DNA of 64,000 nt from Candidatus Cloacimonadales bacterium (GCA_963692475.1 OY829950.1:1364554-1428553); one strand, 5' to 3'. Shown: positions 6,061-29,832, numbered from the stretch's first letter. The notes: generated from the sequence alone by a model not told the origin. Numbers and translations: made by a program.

Positions 6061-9000
6061 ATGAGAGAAAAGATTTTATTGATTGTAATTATTTTAATAT
6101 CTTCCACTATGTTACTTTTTGCTGATTCAGCAATCGTCAATAATGGTGATAATGAAGTAAGTTTAAGCAAAAACTTTGAAACAGAAATCTCGATTGACTA
6201 CAAACTAAATTCTATTTCTGCAAGAGACTTTTCATCTAAAGATGGAAATTTTACTCAGTTATATTTAGATAGTTTTGGGTTGACTGGTGAAATAGGTAAT
6301 CCACAACTTCCTTATAGCTCAAAAATTATTGCTGTTCCTGAAGGAGCAAAAGTAGTTACAGAATTAAATGCAGATTCACCACTAATAATTAATCTTAATG
6401 AAATAGGTTTAAACAATAAAATCTTCCCTGCTCAACCATCTGTATCAAAAAGTTCAAAACCTGAAGATATTGTATTTATGATTGATGATAAGATATATAA
6501 TTCTGCTGAATTTATTCCCCAAACTCAAGTAGAAGTCATCGAACTCGGCTATCAAAGAGGAATGAGGCTTTTTGAAGTAAATTACTATCCTGTAGCATAT
6601 AATCCTGCAAAAAATACTATATCTATTATCCAAAAGGCTACTTTAGATATTCAATTCGTTGGTGCTGATTTAGTAGCAACTCAATATTTGAGAGATAAAA
6701 CTTTTTCTCCAGCTTTTGAAGCAAACTATCCTTCTACAATATTTAATTACCGCAATAATCGTTCTACTTTAGAATCATATCCTCTTGGATATCTTCTTGT
6801 TGCTCCGAGTAACTATTTAGACACTTTAGAGCCATTTATTGAGTGGAAAACCCAACAAGGTTATAATGTTACTATTTTGAATGCAAGCACTATTGGAGCT
6901 ACAACTACAGCTATTAAATCAGCTATTGCTAATATATGGAATAATGCTTCACCAGAAAACCCTGCTCCATCTTATCTTCTCATTTGTGGTGATGTTGCCC
7001 AAGTTCCTGCTTTTACTGGAACAACAGACTCTGGTCATGTTACCGACTTAGATTACGTTAAATTAGAGGGTTCTGATTATCTCCCTGAGATGTATTATGG
7101 AAGATTTTCTGCCACTAGTACAAGTCAGTTAACTACAATCGTGAACAAAACTTTAATGTATGAAAAATATGAAATGCCTGATCCTTCCTACTTAGAAAGA
7201 GCTACACTTATTGCAGGTGTGGATGGTTCATGGGCTCCAACTCATGGTAATGGAACACTTAATTACGGCTCACAATACTATTTTAATTCAGCTCATGACA
7301 TTGATGCTACTACCTATTATTATCCTGAATCAGGTTCTAGTGAATCCAGTATTTTGGCTGATGTTAATGCTGGATTAGGTTATTTAAATTATACTGCCCA
7401 TGGTTCAGAAACTACATGGTATGATCCTAGTTTTACCGTTAGCAATGTAAATAGCCTCACTAATGTGCAACAATATCCAGTGGTTGTTGGTAACTGTTGT
7501 TTAACTAACCATTTCGATACTGCTACCTGTTTTGGTGAAGCATGGCTAAGAGCTTCTAATGGCTCGGTGATTTATATTGGTGGTACTAACTCTACTTATT
7601 GGGATGAAGATTACTGGTGGTCAGTTGGTCATTTCACACCGACATCAACTGCTAATCCAACTTATGCAGGAACTGGTCTTGGTATGTTTGATGCTCTCTT
7701 CCACGAAAACGGAGAAGAGTATGTTAACTGGGTAAATAGTACAGGTTCTATGGTCTATCGTGGTAATATGACAGTTCAAGGTTCTTCTTCAACCCTTAAA
7801 AACTATTATTGGGAAATCTATTCAATCATGGGTGACCCGTCTTTAATTCCTATGGTTGGTGTCCCAGATGCCCAAACTCCTGATTATGCTAATAATCTCT
7901 TGTTAGGTGCCACATCATTAGATGTTACTGCAGCACCCTACTCCTACGTAGCTCTTACTGTAGATGGAGTTATTATTGGTACACAACTATTAGGTTCTAA
8001 CGGTTCAGGAACTGTTAATTTCCCAGCTTTAACTACACCTCAATCAGTAAGAATGGTTATCTCTCGTATAGATTACCAACCATATATTACAGATATTCAA
8101 GTTATTTCAGCTGATGGTCCTTACTTAACTTTAGCAGATTATTCAGTTAATGATGCCAATAACAACGGTACATTAGAGTATGGTGAAACAGCTTCTTTAA
8201 ATTTAGTTATTGAGAATATTGGTACATCTGCCTCAAATTCAGGTACTATTACTTTCAGTGAATCAGACCCATACTTATCTTTAACCTCTACATCAGCTTC
8301 AGTAAGTGCAATAAGTGCTGAAAGCTCTCTTAATGTTAACAATGTAATTAACTTCTCTCTTGCTAATAACATACCTAATAATCATACTATGTCACTTTCT
8401 TATGTTATCTCAGCGAATGGAGAAGAATATACAGGGAATATTACTTTAACTGGTAAAAGTTATGATATGGAGATTACTAATATCTTTATTGATGATAATG
8501 TATTAGGTAATAGTAATAATGTCATCGATGCTGGTGAAACTTTTAATATTCTTGTAACTATTGAAAATAATGGTGAAGCTACTTCTCCAGCTAATAATCT
8601 TAATATCGAAGATGCAGAATATATTACTTATACTAGCTCTAACATAGTAATACCTGCTATTTCTGCAAATAATAGTCAGGAAGTTAGTTTTACTGCTACT
8701 GCATCAAGCTCTATTTCAGTAGGTGAATTAGTTACTTTTACTGTAAACGCTAATTATCCAAATGGAAGTGCAGAGTTTAGTCAAGATTTCTTAGCAGCTC
8801 TCCTACAGATTGGTGATGGAAGCGTTACAGAAACTCATCTGCCAATAGAACCTTACTATGGTTACACTTATAGCCAATCAATCTATACTGCTACAGAGTT
8901 AAACTTGGGAGTATCTCAGATTAATAAAATTGCTTACCATTATAATGGTAATAGCTCTTGGACAGATGATATAGTTGTCTATATGGGCAATACAACAGAG

Positions 9001-12000
9001 ACTAGTTTTTCGTCTTCTTCAGATTGGATTTCTTTAGCAAATTTAACAGAAGTCTATAATGGTTCTTTCTCTGCTCCTGCTAGTGAGGGCTGGATAGAAA
9101 TTGAACTAACTACTCCATTTACTTATGATGGAAGTAGTAATTTAGTGATTGGTTTTGATGAGAATACATCTGGATATCATGAAAGTAGTGACGAATTCTA
9201 TTGTTATGCTTCCGGCTCAGATAGATCTATCTATTATTATAGTGATGGTACAAACCCTAACCCCGCTTCTCCTGTTTCAGGAACGATTTCTGGTAATAAT
9301 CCTAATCTCAGGCTCTTTGCTTCTGCAAGTTCCTCCGGACCTGAAATTGCTCTTAATACCACTTCCCTTGATTTCGGAGAAGTAATAATTGGTAATTCAG
9401 CTACTAAGGATTTTGTTATCTCTAATACTGGTGGAGAAAGCTTAACTGGAACTATTACGTTACCTGATAACTTTACCTTTGCCGGTAGAAATAGTGAGAA
9501 AGAAGCTGCTAACACTAGGACTTCTTCTCAAAACTTCACTATCCCAGTAGGAAATAATCAAACTTATAGCGTTATTTTCACTCCAACAATTGAACTTTGC
9601 TATAACAATAACCTAGAAATTAGTCATAATGCTGACCAATATTCAAGCTATATATCACTTGTAGCTTGTGGAATCAAGCCTACATACACTTCTACAACAA
9701 GATTAGTTAATAAAACTCTTGCTCCTGATACTCAAGATACCTATTCTTATGTGATTGAAAATACAGGAAGTGGAGATTTAGAAGTATTATTGGAAATCAC
9801 TGATGCAGAGAGAAATAGCGGTGGACCTGATACTTATGGTTACACTTGGAAAGATAGTAATGAAACAGGGGTTACCTATAGCTGGATAGATATAAGCTCA
9901 ACTGGTACAATAATTTCTCAAGGTGATGATATTTTAGAAGAGTTAACTCTACCTTTCACTTTTACTTTCTATGGAGAAGATTATACTACTGTAAGTGTCT
10001 GCTCTAATGGATTTTTGAGTTTTAATAGTACATCGACAGCTTATACTAATACAACAATTCCGAATACAACTACTCCTAATGCTTTAATAGCACCTTTCTG
10101 GGATGATTTGAAAGCTACAGGATCTTCTTTTGGAAACATCTATTATCAAAACTTCTCTACTTACTCTGTAATTCAATGGGAGAATGTTTCTCATTATAAT
10201 AGTACTACTCCTGTTAATAATGAGACTTTCCAAGTTATCCTCTATAATAATGGTGATATTAAATATCAATATAAAACAATATTAGATGATACTGATTGTA
10301 CTGTAGGAATTGAAAACCAAGCTGGAGATGATGGCTTACTTTTAACTTATAATAATACATTCTTAGATAATGAATATGCAATTATGTTCACAAGTGGAGC
10401 TTCAACTAATAACTGGCTCTCTCTTAGTTCAGATACTCTTACTATTCCTGAAGGTTCTTCTGAAACTATTACTGTTAGCTTTGATGCAACAGACTTAGAG
10501 TTAGGGACATATAATAAAAATATCTATGTAATAACAAATGATCCTGACCATGAAGAAGTTACTATCCCTGTTACTTTAATAGTAGGTGGTTCTACTGCTC
10601 CAAATATTTTAGTAGATACACAAGCTATTGATTTTGGTACTATAATGACAAATGATGATATACTTGAATCTATCACTATAACTAATATTGGTGGTGAAAC
10701 ACTAACAGGTAATGTTTCTGCTACAAATAGTTTTACTCTTACTGAAGCAAGAGGCAATGTATCTAAGAATATTATTTTGGCTGGTCATAAAGGTTTAAGA
10801 AACCTTCGTAACTTAGACTTCACTCTTGAATCAGCTCAATCTAAGATATATTACCTTAGCCACTCAACAGCCATAGCAGGCTCATTTGACGGTGATATAA
10901 TAATTACCTCTAATGACCCTGAAAACTCTGAAATCTCTATTCCCTTGGCTCTTGAGGTCATTAATCCTGCTTCAATTAATATTGACCCTCAAAGCATTGA
11001 AGTAACTTTGCAAGCAGACCAAACAACAAGCAGAAATTTAACTATAAGTAATACAGGTGATCTTGATTTAACATGTTCTCTAATACTTCAAGCAGACGAA
11101 GACAGAGACATAACTGAAATATTCTCTGCCAACTTTGATGATAACGATTTAACCGGTTGGGATATCGATTATCTCTATTCTGCTGACCATACATGGCATA
11201 TTGCTGATGATTATAGTGGTTCAAGCATAGATGGAAGCTCTTTCTTATTTATAGATAGCGATGCCGCTGGTTCTGGTAATGCAATAGATGATACTATCGA
11301 AACCCCTCTTTTCAATGTTTCTAACTATGAAACTATAACTATTGAATTTGATCACTATTTTAACGAAATTAGTGATGTAGCAGATGTAGATTTTTGGACA
11401 GGTGCAGAATGGATTAATATCGCAAGCTGGGAAACTGATGAGGGAAGTTGGACTTCTCCAAGTCACTTCACCTACAATTTAACTAATGAAGGTTATAGTG
11501 ATGTGAAACTTAGATTCCATTATTATGAGGCTACTTATGCTTGGTACTGGGCAATAGATAACTTAGTTGTTTCTGGAGAAGCTACTCCTGCTCCTCAATG
11601 GGTAAGTATGGATTCTGAATTTAATAGCTTCTCAGTTTCACCTAATTCGAGTGAAGATGTTACACTTAACTTCTCTTCTACTGAATATCTAGCAGGTGAA
11701 TATACTGCAACCTTAAATATTCAATCAAATTCTGCAACTAATAACAGTTTAGATATTCCTGTTACCCTAACTATAAGAGAATTAGAAAATGAACCTGACT
11801 GGGAGCCTGTTATCTATCCTAACAATAGTGCCACTATTTACGCAGAAGTAACTCATTTGAGCAGTGATATTGCTGCTGATGATATTATTTCTGCTTGGGT
11901 TGGTGACGAATGTCGTGGAGTAGGCTCAATAGTTCTCGTAAACAGAAGCCAAGCCTTCACCACAATTGTTGTTCAATCAAATGGTTCATCAGAGAATGTT

Positions 12001-12345
12001 AATTTCAAACTATATGACAGAAGTGAAGATATTGTGATTGAAGAATCTAATTCCACACCTGTTTCTAGTGGGGAAGTAGTTGGCTCTGCTCAGGAACCAT
12101 TCCCTATTAATATCGGAATCATTGAACTTATTGCTCCTAACAACTTAGAAGTAGAAATTGCTAATAATATTGCTACTATCAATTGGATTGCTGTGCCTAA
12201 TGCTGATTTCTATGAAGTCTATTACTCTTCAGATTTAGAGAACTGGACAGACTTAGGTCAGGTAAGCGGTACATCTTATGAACATACTCAACCCCGCAGT
12301 AATACTGAAGCTCACTTCTATAAGATTAAAGCTATGAAGAATTAA
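6061..12345 (+). CDS. giant secreted peptidase C25 (gingipain family) with multiple Ig/FN3/MAM-like modules; no T9SS C-terminal sorting domain seen
   Basis: Signal peptide. C25 core YLLICGDVAQVP, catalytic His block LNYTAHGSETTW and Cys block VVVGNCCLTNHFD. Ends in an FN3-like module (NWIAVPNADFYEVYYSSDLENW). RBS GGAG upstream. Confidence 0.8.
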   Translation: MREKILLIVIILISSTMLLFADSAIVNNGDNEVSLSKNFETEISIDYKLNSISARDFSSKDGNFTQLYLDSFGLTGEIGNPQLPYSSKIIAVPEGAKVVTELNADSPLIINLNEIGLNNKIFPAQPSVSKSSKPEDIVFMIDDKIYNSAEFIPQTQVEVIELGYQRGMRLFEVNYYPVAYNPAKNTISIIQKATLDIQFVGADLVATQYLRDKTFSPAFEANYPSTIFNYRNNRSTLESYPLGYLLVAPSNYLDTLEPFIEWKTQQGYNVTILNASTIGATTTAIKSAIANIWNNASPENPAPSYLLICGDVAQVPAFTGTTDSGHVTDLDYVKLEGSDYLPEMYYGRFSATSTSQLTTIVNKTLMYEKYEMPDPSYLERATLIAGVDGSWAPTHGNGTLNYGSQYYFNSAHDIDATTYYYPESGSSESSILADVNAGLGYLNYTAHGSETTWYDPSFTVSNVNSLTNVQQYPVVVGNCCLTNHFDTATCFGEAWLRASNGSVIYIGGTNSTYWDEDYWWSVGHFTPTSTANPTYAGTGLGMFDALFHENGEEYVNWVNSTGSMVYRGNMTVQGSSSTLKNYYWEIYSIMGDPSLIPMVGVPDAQTPDYANNLLLGATSLDVTAAPYSYVALTVDGVIIGTQLLGSNGSGTVNFPALTTPQSVRMVISRIDYQPYITDIQVISADGPYLTLADYSVNDANNNGTLEYGETASLNLVIENIGTSASNSGTITFSESDPYLSLTSTSASVSAISAESSLNVNNVINFSLANNIPNNHTMSLSYVISANGEEYTGNITLTGKSYDMEITNIFIDDNVLGNSNNVIDAGETFNILVTIENNGEATSPANNLNIEDAEYITYTSSNIVIPAISANNSQEVSFTATASSSISVGELVTFTVNANYPNGSAEFSQDFLAALLQIGDGSVTETHLPIEPYYGYTYSQSIYTATELNLGVSQINKIAYHYNGNSSWTDDIVVYMGNTTETSFSSSSDWISLANLTEVYNGSFSAPASEGWIEIELTTPFTYDGSSNLVIGFDENTSGYHESSDEFYCYASGSDRSIYYYSDGTNPNPASPVSGTISGNNPNLRLFASASSSGPEIALNTTSLDFGEVIIGNSATKDFVISNTGGESLTGTITLPDNFTFAGRNSEKEAANTRTSSQNFTIPVGNNQTYSVIFTPTIELCYNNNLEISHNADQYSSYISLVACGIKPTYTSTTRLVNKTLAPDTQDTYSYVIENTGSGDLEVLLEITDAERNSGGPDTYGYTWKDSNETGVTYSWIDISSTGTIISQGDDILEELTLPFTFTFYGEDYTTVSVCSNGFLSFNSTSTAYTNTTIPNTTTPNALIAPFWDDLKATGSSFGNIYYQNFSTYSVIQWENVSHYNSTTPVNNETFQVILYNNGDIKYQYKTILDDTDCTVGIENQAGDDGLLLTYNNTFLDNEYAIMFTSGASTNNWLSLSSDTLTIPEGSSETITVSFDATDLELGTYNKNIYVITNDPDHEEVTIPVTLIVGGSTAPNILVDTQAIDFGTIMTNDDILESITITNIGGETLTGNVSATNSFTLTEARGNVSKNIILAGHKGLRNLRNLDFTLESAQSKIYYLSHSTAIAGSFDGDIIITSNDPENSEISIPLALEVINPASINIDPQSIEVTLQADQTTSRNLTISNTGDLDLTCSLILQADEDRDITEIFSANFDDNDLTGWDIDYLYSADHTWHIADDYSGSSIDGSSFLFIDSDAAGSGNAIDDTIETPLFNVSNYETITIEFDHYFNEISDVADVDFWTGAEWINIASWETDEGSWTSPSHFTYNLTNEGYSDVKLRFHYYEATYAWYWAIDNLVVSGEATPAPQWVSMDSEFNSFSVSPNSSEDVTLNFSSTEYLAGEYTATLNIQSNSATNNSLDIPVTLTIRELENEPDWEPVIYPNNSATIYAEVTHLSSDIAADDIISAWVGDECRGVGSIVLVNRSQAFTTIVVQSNGSSENVNFKLYDRSEDIVIEESNSTPVSSGEVVGSAQEPFPINIGIIELIAPNNLEVEIANNIATINWIAVPNADFYEVYYSSDLENWTDLGQVSGTSYEHTQPRSNTEAHFYKIKAMKN

Positions 12346-12398: not shown

Positions 12399-12794
12399 TA
12401 TGGCTCTAGTTCATGTCTGGAAGTAATTATGGCTCAAGTTCAAGTATAGTGAAAAAAGAGACTTTTATTATAGTATATTCATTGTATAATAGAAAGTTAC
12501 AAGTTTTAATTTACCGTTTATAGTAAGTTTTGCTTGAAAATACGACTCTAATAATAGAATTTATAACAATAGTTAGCAGGCATATCTTTTTGTTAATGCA
12601 TTGTTCTTTTTTATAAGATCATATTATGTGTATTGAACTAATATAACATCACTATCATGTGTCTGTTAGTTCTCAGCTTAGTGGATGGCTTATGGATGCC
12701 TAATAAACACCTAATAGATACCCAATAGACTATCTGACATAAAGTGTGTCGTCCCATATAAGTGGACTAGTAAATATTAAACTAGGAGCAAGAC

Positions 12795-13217
12795 ATGTTA
12801 AAGAAAAAAAGTACGGTACCGAAAATGCAAAGAATCTACAGTGAAACCTTTAAAATGAAAATTGTTGACGAGATTGAGCAAGGAGATTTAACTCAAGCTG
12901 AATCTAGTAGAATATATAATGTTTCAGAAAGTACCATAAGTAGATGGTTAGCGAGTTATGGAATGAACGACAAAATAGGGAAAAAGGTGATGATTATGAC
13001 AGAACGTGAAACTAGAGAAGCAGACCTTTTAAAAAAGGAAAATAAGCAGTTAAAACGGGCTTTAGAGGATAGCCAGTTCTCAAACGAAATCCTTGAAAAG
13101 TATATTAAGTTTATGGCTGAAGAGAAAGGTATTGATTTAAAAAAAAACATAAATTCAGGTTTCTCCAAAGAGTCTCAAAAGATCTTAGTATCAAGGCTTT
13201 TAAAAGATCAGGAATAA
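12795..13217 (+). CDS. IS3-family transposase OrfA (HTH)
   Basis: 140 aa with HTH (LTQAESSRIYNVSESTISRWL) and a leucine-zipper-like segment. Contains the A-run frameshift site near its 3' end. Confidence 0.9.
   Translation: MLKKKSTVPKMQRIYSETFKMKIVDEIEQGDLTQAESSRIYNVSESTISRWLASYGMNDKIGKKVMIMTERETREADLLKKENKQLKRALEDSQFSNEILEKYIKFMAEEKGIDLKKNINSGFSKESQKILVSRLLKDQE
13139..13147 (+). promoter_or_regulatory. A9 slippery run, probable -1 programmed frameshift site producing the OrfAB transposase
   Basis: AAAAAAAAA lies inside orfA. The -1 frame is open from the run through to the orfB ATG at 13223, as is typical for the IS3 family. Confidence 0.6.
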
Positions 13218-13222
13218 AACAT

Positions 13223-14008
13223 ATGTGTTCAATATTAAATGTTTCAAAGTCAGGTTACTATAAATATCTTCAAAGTGCCTTCCACATCGCTCATAATGAC
13301 TTCCAGTGTCTCTCCAAAGTGAAACAGTACAAAGAAACACAGCCTTATGTTGGCACTTGTAAATTATGGAAAATGCTGGAGAATGATGGTCTAAAGATTG
13401 GAAAAAAGCACCTTAATGACCTTCTTAAAGACCAGAATATGTTAATTCGAAAAAAGAAAAGATATTGCAAAACTTCAATATCAGATGGTAGTAAAGTATA
13501 TCCAAATTTGATTAAAAATATGATAGTAGAGAGAAAAAATCAAGTATGGGTAACTGATATTACCTATATTTCTAAAGACAAAGGATTTTACTATTTGTTT
13601 TTGCTAAGTGATATGCATACCAGACAGATATTGGATTATGAAGTTTCCTCTAATATGCTGACTAATAACCATATAAAGATGTTAAAAAGACAGCTAAAAC
13701 ATGTTAATAATACTAACGATCTTATTCACCACTCAGATCATGGTTCTCAATATACAAGTAATGAGACTATTAACCTTCTGAAACAGCATGGTATAAAGAT
13801 TAGTATGACTGGTGATGGCAAATGCTATGACAACCCTATTGCTGAAAGGATAAATTGTACAATGAAGCATGAATTTGGATTAAAACGGACATTTAGCACT
13901 ATGGAAAGTCTTAAAAAAGCTACTAAAGATGCAGTAATGATCTATAACTCTCAGAGACTTCACAAAAGTTTAGGGTATTTTACTCCAAATGATTTTGCAA
14001 ATCATTAA
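13223..14008 (+). CDS. IS3-family transposase OrfB (DDE / rve integrase core)
   Basis: DDE triad in WVTDITY, HHSDHGSQY and AERINCTMKHE, with 35 residues between the second D and the E. In the -1 frame relative to orfA. Confidence 0.9.
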   Translation: MCSILNVSKSGYYKYLQSAFHIAHNDFQCLSKVKQYKETQPYVGTCKLWKMLENDGLKIGKKHLNDLLKDQNMLIRKKKRYCKTSISDGSKVYPNLIKNMIVERKNQVWVTDITYISKDKGFYYLFLLSDMHTRQILDYEVSSNMLTNNHIKMLKRQLKHVNNTNDLIHHSDHGSQYTSNETINLLKQHGIKISMTGDGKCYDNPIAERINCTMKHEFGLKRTFSTMESLKKATKDAVMIYNSQRLHKSLGYFTPNDFANH

Positions 14009-14472
14009 AAGAGGTTACCAGATGATGAACAGATACACAGCTGAATGTATTTTCTTTTGAAAAATGCGAATAAATTACGAATGCAAAATGGAGTCGACAA
14101 CAGAACTCAAAAGTATGAGTAAATGTCTCATTTTTCAAAAGAGATACATGACTCAGGAGACATAAAAAAGGTGTCCACTATATTGGTACTTGACAAAGCA
14201 GATAATGTAGGATTAGCTTTGCCAAGAACAAAAAGACTTAATGTCGGATGTTAACAGAAAATTTTAAAAGATGTGGTTTATTTATAAAATTTCCACCAGT
14301 CTTGAACTTGAGTCTTTTTTTATCTAGGAAACTGTACTAGATTAAACTGCCATTTGTGTACCAATTTAAACTGCCATCTACACCCCTTCAGGGAATATTC
14401 GAAGAATAGCAATAAGAATGGAAAATTCTCATTGCCCTAATTCTACACCAGACTTAAACATGAGCCAAAGAA

Positions 14473-19992: not shown

Positions 19993-22236
19993 TTAACCTA
20001 AATCTGTGTTTAAATGACATGAATAAAATTCTAATTTCTCTTGCAATTTCTTTGTATCAATAGGTTTTGAGAGAAAGTCATTAAAACCTGCTTTAATAAA
20101 ATCTTCTCTATCACCTACCATAGCTTGAGCTGTTAAAGCAATAACAGGAATATTTTTTAATTTATCATCTTTTCTAATGATTTTAACTGTTTCCACTCCA
20201 TCTAATTTTGGCATTTGAATATCCAGAATAATTAAATCAGCCCTATTGTTTTCTAAAAAATCAAGGACTTCCTCACCATTATTTACAATTGTAAAATCTA
20301 CATTTAATCTTTTGAAAATATGGAGCATTAATTTCTGATTTATCACATTATCCTCAGCTATTAATATCTTTGCTACATTTAACTGTTTACTGATAGCTGT
20401 CTCCTTCTTTATTCCTTTTACATTATTAAGAGAGAATATGGTAACCGGGATTTCAATAATAAATTTTGACCCTTTAGAAAGCTCTGATTCTACTGAAATC
20501 TTTCCATGAAGCATTTCAACGAAGTTTTTAGTTATTGCTAGCCCAAGTCCAGTCCCTTGAGCTTTGAGCTGATGATGATTCTCTATCTGCTCAAAATTTT
20601 CAAAAATTTTATCATAATCTTCAGGTGAAATTCCAATACCAGTATCGATCACTTCGAAATTTAGCTGATTATCTTTATAATCAACATTTAGCGTAACAGA
20701 GCCTTGATCTGTAAATTTAACAGCATTATTTATAACATTGGTAAGAATTTGGAAAATCTTTTGTTTATCTGAGTTGATGAATTCAGGTACATTACAGGAT
20801 TTATTGATTTTGAAATAAATACCCTTCTTATGACACATATTAATAAATATATTATTAATCACAATTATTAGTTTTTCAGTCGAGAAGGTTGCAATCTTCA
20901 CTTTAATTTTACCAAATTCAATTTTTGATAGATCAAGAATGTCATTAATAATATTCATCAAATAGTCTGCTGAATCTTTTATTAAATTTAATTTTTCGAT
21001 TTTAAATTCATCTTTTTCTTCATTCAGGACAAGGTCTGTAAAACCTACAATTGCATTCATAGGTGTTCTAATCTCATGACTCATATTAGCTAAAAACTGT
21101 GATTTTGCTTTATTAGCATTCCGAGCTTGGATAGCTAATTCATTGGCTTTTTTATTGCTCTCTACAAGTTCTTTTTCTGTTTCAATTCTCTTCTCAATCT
21201 CTTTTGATAGAAGTAGATTCTTTTCAGCAATTTCCTCTGCTCTTTTCTTCTCCAACTCCAGCTGTGTCTGAATTTTTAGTTGCTTTGTATTTGCTCGATG
21301 AGCATAAATTAAAAGAAACAAAATGAAAACACTGAAAATAACTAACCCTATGATTAGCCAATTCGACCAAATTCTACCTAAAAGAAGGTTTTTAGGATAA
21401 ATTGATATAATCTCAAGATTTGTATTATCAATAGGATATCTGCCAATATAAACTACTTTTTCTGAGGAATCTTCCAAACTATATAAATTATATTTTTGAT
21501 GTGTGTTAGTTGGGATTTCTATTAGCTGTGGAAATTGGTTTTGTGCATAATCATTAAAGATAAAATTACGACTAATTTCATCTTCATAACCTTGAGCTAA
21601 TAGGATTTTCTTAGAACCACCATACTTTCTAAAGACTCCACTCATAATTATGTCATCGTTAATTTCGGCAATAAGAGTCCCACGGAAAGCACCATTATCA
21701 TAATAAGGTTGAATAATAAGAAAATAGTATTTACCAGCAATAAACAGGACTTTAAACTCTGTTGCTTTATCATTAATGGATATTTTTCCCGGATAGTTAA
21801 GAAAGTCTTCTCTTGCATTAGTTGTAGAAGTGAACTCATCAAATATTTTATTTCTATCCTTATCCAAAAAGACTAAACGCCGATAAAGATTCATATCATC
21901 AATAAATTCTTTGCTAATATGAATCAAGAATGCTTTTTCTACAGCTTTTTTTGCTATAATCAATTCAGTATCAGGCGAGAATTGATTATCATAGGTTTGA
22001 AAGTAATTTTTTAGAGGAAGATTATTGCTAAATATTTCGATGTTGTTTTTACAAATTATATTCCAGTATTCTAAAGATTTAGCATCATTAATTACTTGGG
22101 TGTTTAAATCTTTTATAGACCTTTCTTCTAATTCCCTAATCGAGCGATATTGCGTACTCAAAAAAAAGATCATATAGCTTATTAATATAATAAAAACAGA
22201 TATTGTAGTTATATTTTGTTTATGTTTTTTTAGCAT
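19993..22236 (-). CDS. hybrid sensor histidine kinase / response regulator
   Basis: Two TM segments flanking a periplasmic domain, then a coiled coil. H-box [12 protein letters not shown], ATPase boxes [13 protein letters not shown] and GTGLGL, and a C-terminal receiver ILIAEDN...DIQMPKLDG. Confidence 0.85.
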
Positions 22237-22263
22237 ATTCCCCTTAAAAGATTTCAGTATTTT

Positions 22264-23028
22264 TTATTGAAATCTATTGTTGATTTCCCTCTCACCTTCA
22301 ATTATTGTAATTGAGATGTCATCATCAGAACCTTTTAATAATGCCCTATTGATTAAGCCGATGCTCTTATCTCTGGTTGATTTATCTTCGGATAGACATT
22401 TTTCAATATCTCCTTCAGAAACGAAATCAGTTAAACCATCTGAGCAAAGAATAAATTGAAAATACTCTTTTAATGTCCCAGAATAATGATGAGGTTCAAT
22501 TTCTTTTTTAAATCCTAATGCTGCTGTAATTAAATTTTTATCATTCTGATTGATTATTTCGCTCTTTTTTATAAGACCATCTTTAAATCTTTGCCAGACT
22601 CGGCTATCATCTTCATTAATTTGCCTGAAACCAATCTTATCCCGCAAGTAAACTCTACTATCCCCAATACTAAATGCATAATATTTATCATTAATTATTA
22701 ACAATCCTACTATTGTACTGGAAAGTTTTGGATATTCTTGATGTTTGCTTGAAAAATCCAAAATATCATTATTAACTTCTTGGAGAATTTGACTTATCTC
22801 CTTTTCCACGTCATTAACACTTTCTCTTAAAGTAGGAAACATCGTCTCAAACTTAGAAACAATCATTTTGGATGCAATATCTCCACCAGCGTAACCACCT
22901 ACCCCATCACAAATCATAAACAGTGCTGCATTGAACATATTGATTTGGGAAATATTCAGACTATTGTCTTCATTTCTTTCATGATTTTTCCCTTTTTTGG
23001 AAATTGACCAATATTCAATATTTAGCAC
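22264..23028 (-). CDS. PP2C-family Ser/Thr protein phosphatase
   Basis: GTG start preceded by AGGAAGGA. PP2C blocks NEDN, MICDGVGGYAGG, SIGDSRVY, LCSDGLTD and DDISI. Confidence 0.8.
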   Translation of the reverse strand: MLNIEYWSISKKGKNHERNEDNSLNISQINMFNAALFMICDGVGGYAGGDIASKMIVSKFETMFPTLRESVNDVEKEISQILQEVNNDILDFSSKHQEYPKLSSTIVGLLIINDKYYAFSIGDSRVYLRDKIGFRQINEDDSRVWQRFKDGLIKKSEIINQNDKNLITAALGFKKEIEPHHYSGTLKEYFQFILCSDGLTDFVSEGDIEKCLSEDKSTRDKSIGLINRALLKGSDDDISITIIEGEREINNRFQ

Positions 23029-23238
23029 GATTATTCCTTCCTTTTAGTGTAAAATTTAATTCTAAATCATAATTAAGCAACATCTTATTTAAATTTGCAT
23101 TAATATCTTCATTCAATTCAATAATATCTACCTAGTTTTTTTTGTAAATTGTTTTTTTTCAAAGTGCTTATTTATCTCTTATTAAAGTAGAAAAGACAAT
23201 ATTATTTTCAAAAATTATAGTCTTTTTGAAAATTATTA

Positions 23239-23266
23239 TTGACAGTTTTTTTTATAACTGTATAAA
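23239..23266 (+). promoter_or_regulatory. candidate sigma-70-type promoter (TTGACA-16 nt-TATAAA)
   Basis: TTGACA at 23239-23244 and TATAAA at 23261-23266, in an ORF-free tract. TTGACA recurs at other plausible promoter positions in the window. Confidence 0.35.
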
Positions 23267-23271
23267 ATGCA

Positions 23272-23370
23272 AGAGTAATATGAACTTGTGAAAACAGTTC
23301 TCCTTAATAATGGGTTGGCATGTAATGGAGGTAAGCGTTAACTGCCTAGTTAACGCTTCCTCTTTTTTTT
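23272..23370 (+). ncRNA. candidate ~100-nt small RNA (unknown family)
   Basis: Bounded by the promoter above and a strong intrinsic terminator. Contains a small 5' hairpin (gaacu...aguuc) and a single-stranded CUCCUU. The only ORF is 20 codons with no RBS. Confidence 0.3.
23327..23370 (+). terminator. strong rho-independent terminator
   Basis: ggagg(t)aagcgttaac - tgccta - gttaacgcttcctc(t) forms a ~15-bp stem with one bulge, followed by T8. Confidence 0.65.
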
Positions 23371-23779
23371 AATTTACCTCTCCTTTAAGTTGCATTTAAA
23401 AATCAGGATACCTTTTAAAGTTAAATAGCAGAGCTTTATCAGCTATATATACGAAACCAGTATAGTCCTAATTATCTCATAGTTCTAAACTTGCATACCA
23501 ATTCTTTAATGAGCATATTAACTTTTTCACCACCTTTAAATCTAAATTTTTTACTCACATTTTTCAGTTTGCTACACAATATTATCAAATAATTGCTTTA
23601 TTTTCACAAAGTTAAAATCTTCATTATGTTGTTTTTTTTCCACACTTACAATTTTCACGAAGAGCAATATAGCATCTCTAAACATTATCTATGTAAGCTC
23701 TTATAAGTTTTTTAAGTTGACTCATTTTGACTTAGATTATTTACTGACTTTAGACTTAGAGGTAGAAGAGGTTTGATAG

Positions 23780-26281
23780 ATGAAAGAGTATTTTGTATTA
23801 GATAAATTTTTAGAGAAGAGCAGTTTCCAAACCAATGTATCAGTTCATCATACGGATAATGCTAAGCAAGCTGAATGGGCAGAAATTCCGCCTTCATTAC
23901 ATACATGGGTTAAAGAAACATTGTTAGATTCAGGATACCAGAAGTTATATGTTCACCAAGAAAAAGCTATAATTAGTATATTAAAAGGAATAAATACTGT
24001 TATCAGTACAGGTGTTTCCAGCGGAAAAAGTCTTTGTTACCAAATTCCAGTACTGCACTCATTATCTTTTAATGAACATAACACTAGTCTATGCCTCTAT
24101 CCAACCAAAGCTTTAGCACAAGATCAATATAAATCATTCTCACCTTTGCTAGCTTCCTATTCTACTATTTCAGGAAGGAAAGCAAATATAGACATTTATG
24201 ATGGTGATACAGAACAAAGTCAAAGAAAAGCAATTAGAGAGAGAGCAAATATTATTATAACAAATCCTGATATGTTGCATCTTAGTATTCTACCAAATCA
24301 TAATAGTTGGGCAAAATTCTTTGCAAACCTTAAATATGTTGTTATTGATGAGGTTCATATTTATCGTGGTATCTTTGGTTCTCACTTTACCAATGTTATT
24401 CGTAGATTAAAAAGAATTTGTAGTCACTATGGGGCTTCACCAATCTTTATTCTCACCTCTGCAACAATAGGTAATACTCAAGAATTTATAACTTCTATAA
24501 TTGAACAATTATTTATGATAGTAGATAAAGATTATTCACCACAAGGTAATCGACATTTCCTAATCTATAACCCACCTCTTGTTAATGTTGAATTAGGCAT
24601 AAGAAGAAGTGCTCTTCAAGAGACAACAAGAATAGCAAATTTCTTCAATAAGTTAAATGTTCAAACCTTAATTTTCACTCGTTCAAGAAGATCAGTAGAA
24701 CTTATCGTAAGCAACTTAAAAAAGAGTAGCAGTAAAGCATTTACAGGTTATAGAAGTGGATATTTAAAAGAAGAGAGAAGAGAGATAGAGAAACAACTTA
24801 AAAATGGTGAACTAAATAGTGTAGTTTCCACTAATGCATTAGAGTTAGGAATTGATATAGGAGATTTAGATGTAGTAATTATCAATGGATACCCTGGAAC
24901 AATTGCATCGACATTACAACAAGCAGGGAGAACAGGACGAACAGGTAATGATTCTTTAGTAGTCATGGTAGCTAACTCTACTTTGATAAATCAATATTTA
25001 GTAAAATATCCTGATTATCTATTTTCTAAAACACCTGAACAAGCTCTTTTGGATGCTAATAACCCCTATATTCTCTTAGATCATCTAAAATCTACAATCT
25101 ATGAAATACCTTTTGATAGAAGAGATATATACTATGGAGTAAACAGAGAGATGATTAATGAATTATTAGATTTCCTTTTAGACAAAGGTTATGCTATTGA
25201 AAGGGATAATACGGTTTATTGGAATTCACCAAGAATACCTGCCCAAGAGACATCTCTGCGAACAATTAACTCTAATAATTATACTGTTTTGCACCAAGGG
25301 AAAAATATCGGAATTATTGATAATAATAGTGCTTATTGGTTTGCTCATGAGAAAGCTGTCTATATCCATAATGGTGAGCCATATTTAGTAACAAAATTTG
25401 ATAGAAAATTGAAAAATATTGAAGTATGTATCCATGATAAAGATTATTTTACAGAACCAATTATCAAAACGGATTATGAGTTAAGAAAAGAGCTTAATCT
25501 CTTCACTTATTCATTCGGAAAAGCTCATTATGCTGTCCTGAATGTGCATACACAAGTTACAGGTTTTAAGAAAATCAAGTGGAATAGTCGCGAGATATTA
25601 GACACTGACGATTTAGATTTACCTCAAACAACCCTCCCAACTAAAGGTATAATATTAACACTTTCAGACTTTTATGAGGAGTTTTTGGAGAAAAAAGGAA
25701 ACAGTTCCAAGCAAAATAATTATGGTAAAGATTGGAATGATATCAAGAAATTAGTAAAACAAAGAGACCATCATACTTGTCAGAATTGTGGTAAATTTGA
25801 GAGTAGTGTTTCATTTGATGTACACCATATAAAGCCATTTAAATCTTTCTCTAATAGTCAAGAAGCTAATAAAATGGAGAATTTAATTACTCTCTGCAGA
25901 CAGTGTCATCGAAATGCAGAAATACCAGTAAAAATCCAAAGTACAATGGCAGGCTTAGCCTATTTAATTAGAAACCTTGCTCCTCTATATTTAATGTGTG
26001 CCAATAGTGATATTCAAGTTAATTATAGCGATGATTCAAAATTATCTGATGGGAAAGGAGCTATAATCATCTATGATGCTTTTAAAGGAGGAATTGGCCT
26101 TTCAAAAAAACTCTTTACTAACTTAGAAGCAATCTTAAACTTATGCTATGCTCAAGTTAAAGATTGTGATTGCAGTGAAGGATGTCCTTCTTGTACAGGA
26201 CCTGTGGCAGAAAATGGTTTTGGAGCAAAAGAGAGTGTCTTAGAGCTTTTAGAAGAAATAAGTGGAGCAAGAGATGTCTGA
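23780..26281 (+). CDS. MrfA/YprA-like DEXH-box helicase with C-terminal DUF1998 (Zn-binding) domain carrying an inserted HNH nuclease module
   Basis: Helicase motifs I TGVSSGKS, II VIDEVH, III TSAT and VI QQAGRTGR. C-terminal DUF1998 signature IIYDAFKGGIGL...CDCSEGCPSC. HNH module between them (see next feature). Confidence 0.85.
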   Translation: MKEYFVLDKFLEKSSFQTNVSVHHTDNAKQAEWAEIPPSLHTWVKETLLDSGYQKLYVHQEKAIISILKGINTVISTGVSSGKSLCYQIPVLHSLSFNEHNTSLCLYPTKALAQDQYKSFSPLLASYSTISGRKANIDIYDGDTEQSQRKAIRERANIIITNPDMLHLSILPNHNSWAKFFANLKYVVIDEVHIYRGIFGSHFTNVIRRLKRICSHYGASPIFILTSATIGNTQEFITSIIEQLFMIVDKDYSPQGNRHFLIYNPPLVNVELGIRRSALQETTRIANFFNKLNVQTLIFTRSRRSVELIVSNLKKSSSKAFTGYRSGYLKEERREIEKQLKNGELNSVVSTNALELGIDIGDLDVVIINGYPGTIASTLQQAGRTGRTGNDSLVVMVANSTLINQYLVKYPDYLFSKTPEQALLDANNPYILLDHLKSTIYEIPFDRRDIYYGVNREMINELLDFLLDKGYAIERDNTVYWNSPRIPAQETSLRTINSNNYTVLHQGKNIGIIDNNSAYWFAHEKAVYIHNGEPYLVTKFDRKLKNIEVCIHDKDYFTEPIIKTDYELRKELNLFTYSFGKAHYAVLNVHTQVTGFKKIKWNSREILDTDDLDLPQTTLPTKGIILTLSDFYEEFLEKKGNSSKQNNYGKDWNDIKKLVKQRDHHTCQNCGKFESSVSFDVHHIKPFKSFSNSQEANKMENLITLCRQCHRNAEIPVKIQSTMAGLAYLIRNLAPLYLMCANSDIQVNYSDDSKLSDGKGAIIIYDAFKGGIGLSKKLFTNLEAILNLCYAQVKDCDCSEGCPSCTGPVAENGFGAKESVLELLEEISGARDV
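25763..25922 (+). other. HNH (beta-beta-alpha-Me) nuclease motif embedded in the helicase C-terminal domain
   Basis: RDHHTCQNCGKFESSVSFDVHHIKPFKSFSNSQEANKMENLITLCRQCHRNAE gives the pattern CxxC ... HH ... N ... CxxCH. Confidence 0.75.
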
Positions 26282-27452
26282 TTTGAAACTTTTCCTTGAT
26301 GATTTAGAAGAAGAATCACAAAAAAAGATAGGCAATGCTAAGCCTATAACTGATTTCATAACAGGTTCTTTTATTGAATGTGAATCTCATCGTGTTTTCA
26401 TTCATGATAGTATTATTAATCCTAAAGAAGAAGAGAATCTCACTAATTCATTACCAGCAATCCCCAACTGGCTCTATAAATATAGCAAGATATTCAACCT
26501 AACCTCCCCAGAAGAAATAATTTTCTTAGATACTGAAACAACAGGTTTAGATAGAGGTGCTAACACATACGCTTTTCTTACCGGGGTTCTATATTTTAAA
26601 GAAAGCAAGTGGCATCTTAAGCAATATTTCATCGAATCACCTGAAAATGAAGTTTTATTAATGAATCTACTATCAGAATTGCTATCAGGATTTAAAGTTT
26701 TAGTTAGTTATAATGGGAAATGCTATGATATTCCCCTGTTAGATAATAGATTTAAATATCATAGAAGCGATTATTCAATCAGAAATTTAGAATTCTTAGA
26801 TTTGCTCCATCTCTCACGAAGATTTTGGAAACCTATCTTGCATGGTTGCAAACTACAAAACATTGAAACATTAATTTTTAATTATATACGTGATTATTCG
26901 AATGATATTCCCGGAGAGTTCATTCCTAAAGCTTATTTCGACTACTTAGCAAGTCGTGATGCAGAGGAAATTGCAAGTGTATTTTATCATAATGAACAAG
27001 ATTTATACTCTCTAACCAGAATCTTGGAAGTATGCACAAATCTCAATTTTATGGATTTTAACTATTTAGAACTCTTTAAGATAGATAGCTATAGTCTTGC
27101 CAAACTTCTTATGGATATTGGATTAGAAGATGCTTCTCTCCCTTTGTTAGAAGAACTTGTTAAAAAAGGTAAGATTTCAGAAAATATTCTTTTACTTTTA
27201 ACTAAACTTCTTAAGAAAGATGCAAAATTCCTCTCAGCTGTTGAATATTTGAAAACAATGGAAACTACTTCTCCCCTAATCTGCTTAGAAATCTCAAAAA
27301 TTTACGAGCATAAACTTAAAGATATTCAGCAATCCTTCTATTATGCCAGAAAAGCCTATCTCCTACTACACGAAGAAAGTACCTTCGATAACAATTTAAT
27401 CTCAGATGCTGAAAAGAGAATAACAAGACTTAAGAATAAAATATCTAAATAG
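26274..27452 (+). CDS. MrfB/YprB-like RNase H-fold (DEDD) exonuclease with C-terminal TPR-like region
   Basis: The ATG at 26274 overlaps the helicase stop (ATGTCTGA) and lies 6 nt after GGAG. The track start at 26262 is GTG inside the RBS. Exonuclease motifs FLDTETTGL, SYNGKCYDIPLLD and YHNEQDLYSL, with a helical repeat tail. Confidence 0.75.
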   Translation: MSDLKLFLDDLEEESQKKIGNAKPITDFITGSFIECESHRVFIHDSIINPKEEENLTNSLPAIPNWLYKYSKIFNLTSPEEIIFLDTETTGLDRGANTYAFLTGVLYFKESKWHLKQYFIESPENEVLLMNLLSELLSGFKVLVSYNGKCYDIPLLDNRFKYHRSDYSIRNLEFLDLLHLSRRFWKPILHGCKLQNIETLIFNYIRDYSNDIPGEFIPKAYFDYLASRDAEEIASVFYHNEQDLYSLTRILEVCTNLNFMDFNYLELFKIDSYSLAKLLMDIGLEDASLPLLEELVKKGKISENILLLLTKLLKKDAKFLSAVEYLKTMETTSPLICLEISKIYEHKLKDIQQSFYYARKAYLLLHEESTFDNNLISDAEKRITRLKNKISK

Positions 27453-27484
27453 GTATAGAGAATGCACAATTCGAGTTTAATTCA

Positions 27485-28114
27485 GGCTCAAGTTCAAGTA
27501 TAGTGGAAAAAAAAGAGACTTTTATTATAGTATATTCATTGTATTAGATAAAGTTACGAGTTTAAATTTACTATTTAGAGTAAGTCTTGCTTGTAAATAA
27601 GACTTTAATAATATAATTTTAAACATAGTTAGCAAGCATGTCCTTTAACCCGAATGGTGCAGTAGAGCTTTAGTAATACTTCACTAAAGCTATGTATCAC
27701 AAGTGAAGAGTGCAGATTCTTTTAGCAAAATAGCTTACAGAATTCAGACGCATATAATATATATATTCGGAAGAATTATGGAAGTTACTTTTGCATAAGA
27801 ATATAGTGCTATTCTCAAAGATATACTGCATTATTTGGGTTTAATTAATCCATTGTTCTTTTCTAAAGGATCATACTATGTGTATTGAACTTATATATCT
27901 TCACTATCAGGTGTCTGTTGGTTTTCAGCTTAGTGGATGGCTAATAGATGCCCAATAAACCCCTAATAAACCGCCAATAGACTATCTGATATAAAGCAAA
28001 TAATGAATAATTTAGATTTGCCAAGGACAAAAAGACTGAATGTTGGATGTTAACAGAAAATTCTACAAAGAGGTGACCTATTTATGAAATTTCCACCAGT
28101 CATGAACTTGAGCC
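27485..28114 (+). mobile_element. ~430-bp MITE (ISL3-like termini), copy 2, carrying a nested 190-bp element
   Basis: Terminal inverted repeat ggctcaagttca(a)g / c(a)tgaacttgagcc. Perfect 8-bp target duplication TTAATTCA (27477-27484 and 28115-28122). No ORF. Confidence 0.7.
27649..27839 (+). mobile_element. ~190-bp MITE-like / structured-RNA-like element, copy B (nested in the 430-bp MITE)
   Basis: Same termini as copy A. 5-bp direct repeat TTTAA (27644-27648 and 27840-27844). The uninterrupted site is visible in MITE copy 1 (gcatatctttttgttaatgcattgttc). Confidence 0.6.
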
Positions 28115-29161
28115 TTAATTCACTATTTGTAAAAACACATTTTCAATAAAATAAAGTGATATATATGAAATCAAGAAAGCAAAGATTGGGGTAACAACCC
28201 AACCGACTATAATTTTACCAAGTTGATTAAAATTCACATCTACATTTTTCCTCGCTAACCCAAGCCCTATTACAGAACCAACTATTGCTTGCGAAGCAGA
28301 TATTGGCACTAAAGGAAAAGCTGGTAGCCCGTTGCTAATAAGAAAATTATGGATAGTAGATGAGGCATAAAGAAACATAGTTAAAGCAACAGATAATACA
28401 ACTATTAATGCTGTGATTGGTGAAAATCTATATAAATTATTCCCAATTGTGCTCATTACTTTCTTAGAGTAGGTCGAGACACCTATTGCAATAGCGATTC
28501 CACCGACAAAGAAAAGTATTTTAGATGGGTCTAAACTAATGAACTTAAAAATAGTAATAGATTTAAATGGATTTGAATTTACAAATACACCCATCACATT
28601 ACCTATATTATTTGCTCCAAGTGCATAAGATCCAAAGATTCCTACCAATATCAAACCAATCCTAGTTAGATTATCTATCTGAACCATATGTAATTTCGTT
28701 CTGTTGAAAAAATATTGGACTATTTTGAACAAAACATAGGTGGTAAATCCTGTTAAAATAGGAGATATAACCCAGGTAGATGCAATTTTAACTAAAACGA
28801 TGTAGTCTGTGAGCTTATCTGAGTATATATTCCAACCAATAATTGCACCAATTATAGCTTGACTTGTTGAAATAGGTAATCCAGCTCTACTCATATAATA
28901 AGTAGTAAGGGCAGCCGCAAAAGCTACTGTAAAAGCTGCAGCAATATGTTCAATGGTACCTAATTTATTCAAAGTAGCACTAGCTCCGCTACCCCCAATG
29001 ACAGCACCTAAAACTACGAATATACTACATAATATAGCAGCAGTTTTAAATCTGACCATCTTAGTTCCTACTGCAGTTCCCCAAAAGATTCCAGCGTGGT
29101 TAGCTCCTAATGACCATCCTAAAAATATACCACTTGAAAGAAAAACTAAGGAAGTAATCAT
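28115..29161 (-). CDS. inorganic phosphate transporter, PiT family
   Basis: Polytopic membrane protein with duplicated PHO4 signature-like blocks SLGANHAGIFWG and ALGANNIGNVMG. Confidence 0.85.
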   Translation of the reverse strand: MITSLVFLSSGIFLGWSLGANHAGIFWGTAVGTKMVRFKTAAILCSIFVVLGAVIGGSGASATLNKLGTIEHIAAAFTVAFAAALTTYYMSRAGLPISTSQAIIGAIIGWNIYSDKLTDYIVLVKIASTWVISPILTGFTTYVLFKIVQYFFNRTKLHMVQIDNLTRIGLILVGIFGSYALGANNIGNVMGVFVNSNPFKSITIFKFISLDPSKILFFVGGIAIAIGVSTYSKKVMSTIGNNLYRFSPITALIVVLSVALTMFLYASSTIHNFLISNGLPAFPLVPISASQAIVGSVIGLGLARKNVDVNFNQLGKIIVGWVVTPIFAFLISYISLYFIENVFLQIVN

Positions 29162-29166
29162 TAAAG

Positions 29167-29832
29167 TTATAGTCTCCTTTTAATCACATAGACAGACAAT
29201 CTTTCAGCTACTGATTCTGCCATATCAGAAGGAAGAACTATTTTTTCAACAAAATAGCGAAGATGCATTTTAACAGATAAATAGGCAATATCTCTATGTT
29301 CGAAAATCTTTCTCTTTAAAGATTCTTCTAATTTATCTGCTTCATGTTCATAGAAATGAACTTTATTAATATAATTTTCTACTAACTTTATTTCAGTAAA
29401 AAATGCACGTGTAGCTTTCACTAATTCTAAAATTGTCTTGGAAGATAGCTCAGAAAGCTCCAAGTAGCCCGGCCTAAGGTTCTCAGGAATATCGGGCTGT
29501 TCAATTGATAGCTGTTCCATTACCTTTTTGCAGACATCAACAACATCATCTAAAGTTTCTATAATGCCAAGAACATCTCCGCGAGATTCTGGTATTAGCA
29601 TATATGAATATAGCTTAAACTTAATGTCATGCCTAAATTCATCAGCCTCATTTTCTAAATTAACCATATCTTTGTAATAGTTTGCAAATCTCTCTTCTTT
29701 CCAGTTAATATAGCATCTTATACCTTCTTCAAAAACTAAGGCACACTTCTCCACAACATCAATATACTTATTGATCAGATTCTGTAAATCTTTCGATTTA
29801 GATGAAAAGAAAGAACTCATTTTTTCCTCCAT
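29167..29832 (-). CDS. DUF47 / PhoU-like phosphate-transport regulator (TIGR00153-type)
   Basis: 221-aa all-helical protein 5 nt upstream of the PiT gene. The DUF47-PiT pairing is a well-known conserved gene pair. Confidence 0.7.
   Translation of the reverse strand: MEEKMSSFFSSKSKDLQNLINKYIDVVEKCALVFEEGIRCYINWKEERFANYYKDMVNLENEADEFRHDIKFKLYSYMLIPESRGDVLGIIETLDDVVDVCKKVMEQLSIEQPDIPENLRPGYLELSELSSKTILELVKATRAFFTEIKLVENYINKVHFYEHEADKLEESLKRKIFEHRDIAYLSVKMHLRYFVEKIVLPSDMAESVAERLSVYVIKRRL

Follow-up and report, generated by a model that had tools for sequence, protein, structure and literature searches.

Why would a DNA-repair helicase carry a nuclease domain within its own polypeptide while a second nuclease is encoded by the next gene? 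This question is raised by two genes at positions 23780-27452 of a 64,000-nucleotide (nt) stretch of DNA (hereafter the window) from a Candidatus Cloacimonadales bacterium (GCA_963692475.1, OY829950.1:1364554-1428553), whose closest relatives in our protein database and GTDB searches are Cloacimonadales genomes. The first gene encodes a helicase resembling Bacillus subtilis MrfA (YprA) with an HNH-type segment embedded in it, and the second an exonuclease resembling MrfB (YprB). The account that we prefer, and to which we give about an even chance, is that the pair forms a chromosomal MrfAB (YprAB)-type DNA-repair module of a Cloacimonadales-like genome, in which the helicase-embedded HNH domain nicks and MrfB resects.

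The helicase and its partner exonuclease

The two genes and their parts are laid out as follows, in window coordinates and, for the helicase, in residues.

23780..26281, + strand: mrfA-like gene, 833-amino-acid (aa) superfamily 2 DExH helicase with embedded HNH domain, stop codon included (open reading frame (ORF) call, Pfam, match to 6ZNP, AlphaFold2 (AF2) model)
23897..25048, + strand: RecA1 and RecA2 core, residues ~40-423 (Pfam and motifs; limits transferred from MrfA)
25049..25690, + strand: winged-helix (WH), OB and connector (CON) region, residues ~424-637 (collinear with MrfA)
25691..25933, + strand: HNH nuclease insert, residues 638-718 (no MrfA counterpart; PF01844; isolated model)
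25934..26278, + strand: MZB/DUF1998 Zn-binding domain, residues 719-833 (PF09369; aligns to MrfA 644-751)
26165-26194, + strand: MZB cysteine cluster C796, C798, C802 and C805, four cysteines invariant across the homologue alignment
26264..26281, + strand: gene junction, with GGAG at 26264-26267, the mrfB ATG at 26274 and the helicase stop TGA at 26279-26281 (read from the sequence)
26274..27452, + strand: mrfB-like gene, 392-aa DEDDh 3'-5' exonuclease with a helical C-terminal tail, stop codon included

The helicase motifs I (GVSSGKS, residues 78-84), II (DEVH, 190-193), III (SAT, 227-229) and VI (QQAGRTGR, 380-387) are all invariant in an alignment of 84 homologues (to 40% identity), and the C-terminal part contains IIYDAFKGGIGL (763-774) and CDCSEGCPSC (796-805). 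Pfam assigned DEAD to residues 59-234 (E 2e-31), Helicase_C to 290-389 (E 2e-20) and MZB/DUF1998 (PF09369) to 726-806 (70.8 bits against a cutoff of 24.2), with a weak match of the winged-helix model WHD_HRQ1 at 424-496. The best solved relative found by phmmer is B. subtilis MrfA/YprA (PDB 6ZNP; E 4e-167, 35% identity). A full-length AF2 model built on the 84-homologue alignment (mean pLDDT 85.8, pTM 0.82) contains long beta strands at residues 500-628 and superposes on 6ZNP in Foldseek with a TM-score of 0.82 normalised by the target and 0.74 normalised by the query. A family survey of about 52,000 YprA helicases sets the repair branch ('YprA only', MrfAB/YprAB) apart from the defence branches, and every structural and sequence measure that we applied, except the NCBIfam equivalog TIGR03817 (DECH_helic), indicates that the helicase is a member of this repair branch. 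TIGR03817 gave 574.8 bits, below its trusted cutoff of 874.1, with the match split in two by the insert; since this model describes an actinobacterial SftH-type subgroup, failing it does not exclude family membership. In addition, an 82.8-kb ENA contig encodes a 606-aa protein (P0015) that matches the first 72% of the helicase at 100% identity and has no HNH or MZB part; a frameshift or a truncated gene call in a sibling assembly from the same organism is the probable cause.

The second protein matches RNase_H_2 (PF13482, E 6e-36) in Pfam and the MrfB crystal structure 8UN9 over residues 80-249 (E 6e-21). Its DEDDh motifs, namely, DTETTGL (86-92, with D86 and E88), YNGKCYDIPLLD (146-157) and HNEQD (239-243, with H239 and D243), align with those of 8UN9, where the correspondence can also be written as YNGK.YD and HNE.D. 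These matches to 6ZNP and 8UN9 support the MrfA/MrfB-type helicase/exonuclease pair that an earlier note on this DNA, made from the sequence by eye, had proposed. All the motifs quoted in that note were found, including the DEDD motifs of the partner, and the HNH stretch it placed at 25763-25922 corresponds to residues 662-714. On the other hand, the TPR-like tail that it described was not confirmed by Pfam, where the ~140 residues after the exonuclease core gave no TPR match at E≤0.1.

Translational coupling of the two genes, also claimed by the earlier note, agrees with the junction: the mrfB ATG at 26274 lies within ATGTCTGA, which also holds the helicase stop, the genes overlap by 8 nt, and GGAG is found six bases upstream of the ATG. 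The same 8-nt overlap is present in an 87%-identical relative, locus L002, where the helicase gene ends at 12502 and the next gene starts at 12495.

An HNH insert at the CON/MZB junction

When aligned to MrfA, residues 18-637 of the helicase correspond to MrfA 19-641 and residues 719-828 to MrfA 644-751, leaving ~80 residues without counterpart; otherwise the two proteins are collinear, with no other insertion in the helicase. According to the published MrfA structure, CON spans residues 557-630 and MZB 631-749, which places the insert ~10 residues inside the N-terminal edge of MZB, ahead of both the first long helix of that domain and the part covered by Pfam's DUF1998. The earlier note had described an HNH module spliced into the DUF1998 domain; that it is a true insertion relative to MrfA holds, but the site was imprecise and is better given as the CON/MZB junction.

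The insert shows a complete Cys4-braced HH...N...H layout, with CQNC at 667-670, VHH at 681-683, NLITLC at 701-706 and CRQCH at 706-710, and Pfam assigned HNH (PF01844) to residues 667-712 with 42.2 bits against a gathering score of 21.4 (E 9e-11). Its parts are a flexible linker (640-644), which has low confidence in the full model, a helix (652-662), a Cys4 Zn site (C667, C670, C706 and C709), the catalytic residues H682-H683, N697/N701 and H710, and E714. Fifteen residues, namely, Y648, G649, W652, R662, D663, C667, C670, H682, H683, P686, N701, C706, C709, H710 and E714, are invariant in the 84 homologues, and N697 is conserved in at least 90% of them; an extra conserved motif, NxYGxxW...RxRD, precedes the HNH core at the N-terminal end of the insert. 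The insert profile matches the HNH endonuclease of phage GVE2 (E 4e-8), the IscB HNH domain (2e-6) and EcoKMcrA (2e-5), and H682/H683, N701 and H710 align with the D-H...N...H residues of the GVE2 enzyme.

The predicted structure points the same way. In the AF2 models of both the full-length protein and the isolated insert (pLDDT 83.6 when modelled alone), beta strands at 680-683 and 702-705 are followed by a helix from 707, which in the full model continues unbroken into the first MZB helix and ends at 738. The best Foldseek matches of the isolated insert are all HNH nucleases (GVE2, McrA, TagI, Cap5, Cas5-HNH, IscB, the Gme nicking HNH and Cas9), with TM-scores of 0.5-0.63 and with modest E-values for what is a short domain. 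Motif and predicted fold thus place the insert in the HNH (beta-beta-alpha-metal) superfamily, and the textbook HNH of the earlier note is borne out by Pfam, by the invariant residues and by the predicted fold alike.

A domain of this kind might have ceased to be a nuclease and persist, stabilised by Zn, for a structural or DNA-binding role. According to Bell et al., the OB-CON-DUF1998 canopy of YprA homologues contains many small inserted modules that bind Zn, inactivated nuclease domains are reported in the literature to be common in the YprA family, and DotN, representing non-nuclease Zn proteins, is among the structural matches of the insert. However, inactivated domains usually lose their active-site residues, while here the Zn cysteines as well as H682, H683, N701 and H710 are invariant in the 84 sequences, and the Pfam HNH score is well above threshold. 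Column conservation of the insert (0.60) equals that of the RecA motor (0.64) and MZB (0.61) and is above that of WH-OB-CON (0.53). We allow a purely structural or DNA-binding role only a slim chance.

Distribution, origin and genomic context

We scanned GTDB, with one genome per species, using the alignment of the HNH and MZB region as the query, and found at least 586 species loci with the insert in the same position. The best 80 of these at least 586 loci belong to Cloacimonadota, many Anaerolineae, one Marinisomatota genome and one Deinococcota (Trueperaceae) genome, and in all 80 the insert lies within a full-length helicase; cultured carriers among the Anaerolineae are Longilinea arvoryzae KOME-1, Bellilinea caldifistulae GOMI-1 and Leptolinea sp. 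HRD-7. PF01844 and PF09369 occur together on all of the 120 best database matches, down to 42% identity. In a separate search we compared the part of the helicase that precedes the insert (residues 1-636) with 1.84 billion 50%-identity representatives at E≤1e-30, which returned 2453 clusters. Of the best 150 clusters, 27 carry the HNH domain at this site, the others being canonical proteins of ~750-790 aa or longer fusions, so the segment is not shared by all orthologues and its description as an insertion stands. The length of the segment at the site is bimodal, with 0-48 residues in proteins without the HNH domain and 80-109 in those with it. No decayed HNH remnants were found among the relatives without the insert, which have short low-complexity linkers instead.

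A neighbour-joining tree of 127 representatives (577 core columns, 50 bootstraps) places the HNH-bearing proteins in two or three groups interleaved with insert-less ones, with backbone bootstrap values of at most 20%; monophyly of the insert-bearing proteins is neither shown nor rejected by it. Because the insertion point is identical, the extended motif is shared and intermediates are absent, we infer that a single acquisition is to be favoured. As a side observation, many MrfA-family representatives without the HNH domain are 900-1540 aa long and have their cysteine cluster at the usual ~710-730 (P0167, P0172, P0220-P0224, P0236, P0239, P0249, P0253, P0258, P0260, P0264 and P0268), and they therefore carry C-terminal extensions of 200-800 aa; these proteins are possibly MrfA-MrfB fusions, a kind that is mentioned in the literature.

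The discrete presence or absence of the insert could suggest that a selfish element (for example, a homing endonuclease, an intein-like element or the ORF of a group II intron) once entered the gene and that its remains are tolerated there, and HNH domains of group II intron maturases do match the insert profile weakly (E 0.002-0.003). A relic is nonetheless highly improbable, given that the insert occupies the same site and frame in at least 586 species of several phyla, has left no decayed copies, is conserved like the motor domains, and passes with its C-terminal helix seamlessly into the first MZB helix. None of the Pfam matches is to a reverse transcriptase or to another domain of group II introns; no search was aimed at the splicing motifs of inteins.

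We then considered whether the locus belongs to a defence system. In this alternative, the protein would be an anti-phage or anti-plasmid effector, a YprA helicase-nuclease that degrades invading DNA in the manner of DruE or ARMADA, with MrfB as a second nuclease. YprA helicases with fused nucleases are indeed central to Druantia, ARMADA, DISARM and Dpd, and HNH domains are frequent as defence effectors, for example in Cap5, Cas5-HNH and ZorE. The helicase is also matched by the PADLOC models BrxH/BrxHI, SngC, DruE, DrmA, Dpd and Cas3. However, these matches cover the generic RecA core only, for example residues 56-236 against a DruE profile of 2023 positions. Since the helicase is collinear with repair-branch MrfA without other insertions, the BrxA-like, beta-barrel Zn and MarR-like inserts, the C-terminal Vsr, PLD or EEP nucleases and the split DrmA/DrmB organisation of the defence branches (Druantia, ARMADA, BRIGADE, TALON, DISARM and Dpd) are all absent.

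The gene neighbourhood argues against defence as well. In the window, the pair is preceded by genes for a hybrid histidine kinase and a PP2C phosphatase and followed by those for a PiT phosphate transporter, a PhoU-like protein and Ppx/GppA. Five sampled relatives of different lineages likewise have housekeeping neighbours, which serve metabolism, signalling or secretion and change between lineages, with mrfB the sole recurrent neighbour, and neither companion genes (DruH, DrmC, a methylase or Dpd genes) nor a defence island was seen in the window or in these five relatives. Among the best 80 of the at least 586 loci, mrfB is adjacent to the helicase gene in 45, nearby in four and absent from the flank in 26, with five loci uninformative; it is thus linked in 49 of the 75 informative loci, or about two thirds. 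A phage collection gave no match and a plasmid collection matched the helicase core only, with no full-length match, a weak negative as both collections are poor in Cloacimonadota and Anaerolineae. Sequence identity of the helicases follows taxonomy. The locus would accordingly be classed as housekeeping rather than accessory from its gene context, and a role in defence appears improbable; the accessory or defence setting that the earlier note had entertained does not fit an insert at one site in at least 586 species, with housekeeping neighbours that vary between lineages, PADLOC matches to the core only and no phage match.

That suggestion had drawn on a pile of miniature inverted-repeat transposable elements (MITEs) downstream of the pair and an ORF-free tract upstream of it. 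Both features exist, and the repeats, which are derived from an insertion sequence (IS) and adjoin the pair, count in favour of a defence setting. The downstream segment at 27478-28112 is an internally deleted, MITE-like copy of the ends of the following element, at ~86% identity.

12424-14312: IS3-family element, with orfA (helix-turn-helix) at 12795-13217 and orfB (rve/DDE) at 13223-14008

Nested in this copy is a repeat of ~200 bp related to ~2582-2780. The downstream repeats are a local remnant derived from the IS3 element and are no sign of a mobile island. Directly upstream of the IS3 element lies an ORF of 2094 aa (6061-12345, + strand), and the corresponding region in close relatives encodes large cargo proteins of the type IX secretion system (Por_Secre_tail).

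The upstream tract, a spacer of 751 bp, has no long ORF. Within it, positions 23224-23368 (+ strand) look like an undescribed small RNA gene that is restricted to close relatives. This candidate has a promoter near consensus (TTGACA at 23239 and TAAAAT ending at 23268, with 18-nt spacing and 11 of 12 matches), a putative transcript of ~95 nt, and a terminator with an 11-bp stem at 23333-23358 plus a T-run; its fold has a z-score of -3.9. The block is near-identical in L002 and in a second relative, L006 (~94% to L006 by blastn), where the helicases are 78-87% identical and the surrounding spacer is scrambled, and it was not found at more distant loci. Within the transcribed part, the terminator loop differs, as do a few scattered positions towards the 5' end. 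Neither the candidate nor the region 22000-29500 as a whole gave an Rfam match at E≤0.1.

A putative repair mechanism and comparison with known systems

The MrfAB pathway, which in B. subtilis repairs mitomycin C adducts, was discovered in 2018-2019, and structures of MrfA and MrfB have since been solved. B. subtilis MrfA is a 3'-5' helicase with an entry funnel for single-stranded DNA formed by RecA2, OB, CON and MZB; the displaced strand has been proposed to pass between MZB and RecA2, and MZB rotates by ~63 degrees per cycle. MrfB, a 3'-5' exonuclease, acts preferentially on DNA ends. In the published models, MrfA unwinds and MrfB degrades the adducted strand; these models allow for partners and recruitment factors yet to be identified, assign incision to no enzyme, and leave out how the lesion is found.

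Placed on this background, the insert suggests where a first cut could come from. In B. subtilis MrfA, the corresponding junction belongs to the side of the protein where the funnel for 5' DNA entry is formed, and it adjoins the path proposed for the displaced strand; an HNH domain anchored to the first MZB helix would sit on the leading, duplex-facing side of the motor. The motor might then track 3'-to-5' on one strand until it runs into a lesion or branch point, or stalls at one; there the HNH domain would nick the DNA at the leading edge and leave a 3'-hydroxyl end, from which the co-translated MrfB could resect as the damaged strand is peeled away by the helicase. Where no mrfB is linked, the HNH domain would perhaps be the sole nuclease. 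What the analysis itself shows is how the domains are arranged, where the insert lies, that its active-site residues are invariant, that an HNH fold is predicted, how widely the variant is distributed, that mrfB is linked in about two thirds of loci and that the context is one of housekeeping genes. Catalytic activity of the HNH domain is a prediction from its residues and fold; nicking instead of double-strand cutting, the position of the cut and damaged host DNA as the substrate would follow only if the scheme is right.

Three points weigh against the repair module. MrfAB function has been reported to be species-specific and lesion-specific, and therefore the substrate in the anaerobic Cloacimonadota may be something other than mitomycin-type adducts. 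No mrfB is present within about 6 kb in 26 of the 75 informative loci, including 10 of 16 from Cloacimonadota, and therefore the two nucleases are not an obligatory pair. The housekeeping assignment, moreover, is drawn from gene context alone and in organisms that are mostly uncultured.

Some of the same observations would suit the processing of replication forks or branched DNA. Human ZRANB3 is a precedent for a motor of the superfamily 2 type joined to an HNH nickase. By analogy, the HNH domain could be a structure-specific nickase and the helicase could remodel stalled forks, R-loops or recombination intermediates. The ZRANB3 HNH domain (5MKW) is among the structural matches of the insert, although the match is weak (E 0.47), and the loci without MrfB would fit a helicase-nickase that acts by itself. 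MrfA has shown no specificity for mitomycin-damaged DNA in vitro, which also fits; on the other hand, the only genetics available for the family, those of B. subtilis mrfAB and yeast Hrq1, point to the repair of adducts and crosslinks. While the present evidence does not distinguish the substrate, we consider fork processing unlikely and retain the repair module as the preferred account.

Taken further, HNH-MrfA with or without MrfB might constitute a self-contained, UvrABC-free excision repair in which a single protein locates the damaged strand, nicks it and unwinds it, leaving resection to MrfB, a proposal that we make tentatively and at somewhat less than an even chance. If it is correct, the embedded HNH domain would be the incision activity that the canonical MrfAB pathway lacks, and a second widespread bacterial route of damage excision would exist in Cloacimonadota and Anaerolineae and, sporadically, in Marinisomatota and Deinococcota. 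The HNH-MrfA proteins, a large and ancient group with an intact nuclease fixed by the DNA entry side, could serve as a natural experiment on the first cut: incision is predicted to take place at the helicase itself, so that unwinding and cutting could be studied in one protein. Compact helicase-nickase proteins might also find use as tools.

We found no description of an HNH domain inside MrfA/YprA in open-access papers, in bioRxiv or in the supplementary tables of the YprA survey, and both this nuclease type and fusion at the CON/MZB junction are absent from the listing of that family-wide survey; in public annotation the HNH-MrfA proteins appear as plain 'DEAD/DEAH box helicase'. The closest known system is B. 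subtilis MrfA/MrfB (YprA/YprB; 6ZNP, 6ZNQ and 6ZNS for MrfA, 8UN9 for MrfB), which has the same order of two genes, the same domain series in the helicase (NTR, RecA1, RecA2, WH, OB, CON and an MZB with four cysteines) and the same DEDDh exonuclease core. It differs in that MrfA is ~750 aa long and without a nuclease, whereas the helicase in the window has an 80-aa HNH domain between the positions of MrfA 641 and 644; moreover, the B. subtilis pair has been tested genetically and biochemically, whereas the pair in the window is known from sequence alone.

The defensive YprA systems (DruE, ARMADA, TALON, DISARM DrmAB and DpdJ of Dpd) share the helicase superfamily, the OB-CON-DUF1998 canopy and the joining of a nuclease to a motor. 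However, the nucleases they use belong to the Vsr/PD-(D/E)xK, PLD, EEP or RNase H types, none of them HNH, and are located at the C-terminus or in a neighbouring gene; neither their characteristic helicase inserts nor their conserved multi-gene operons were found here. The small Zn-finger HNH enzymes (GVE2, 5H0M; Gme, 4H9D; EcoKMcrA, 6GHC; and the HNH domains of IscB and Cas9) have in common with the insert the CxxC...HH...N...CxxCH pattern and the predicted beta-beta-alpha-metal fold. In contrast to the insert, which is embedded in a translocating helicase and adds its conserved N-terminal motif, they are free-standing or are domains of RNA-guided or modification-dependent nucleases.

In human ZRANB3, too, a single chain unites an HNH nuclease with a DNA motor driven by ATP, and the protein acts in genome maintenance. 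It is, however, a eukaryotic SNF2 double-strand translocase with a terminal HNH domain, with no evolutionary link to HNH-MrfA. Fusion of a helicase and a nuclease is thus a known theme (DruE/ARMADA, Cas3, ZRANB3), from which HNH-MrfA differs by the type of nuclease, by the internal site between CON and MZB and by belonging to the repair branch. Against these systems, HNH-MrfA is an ancient and widespread domain insertion within a known family, and a mechanistically suggestive one.

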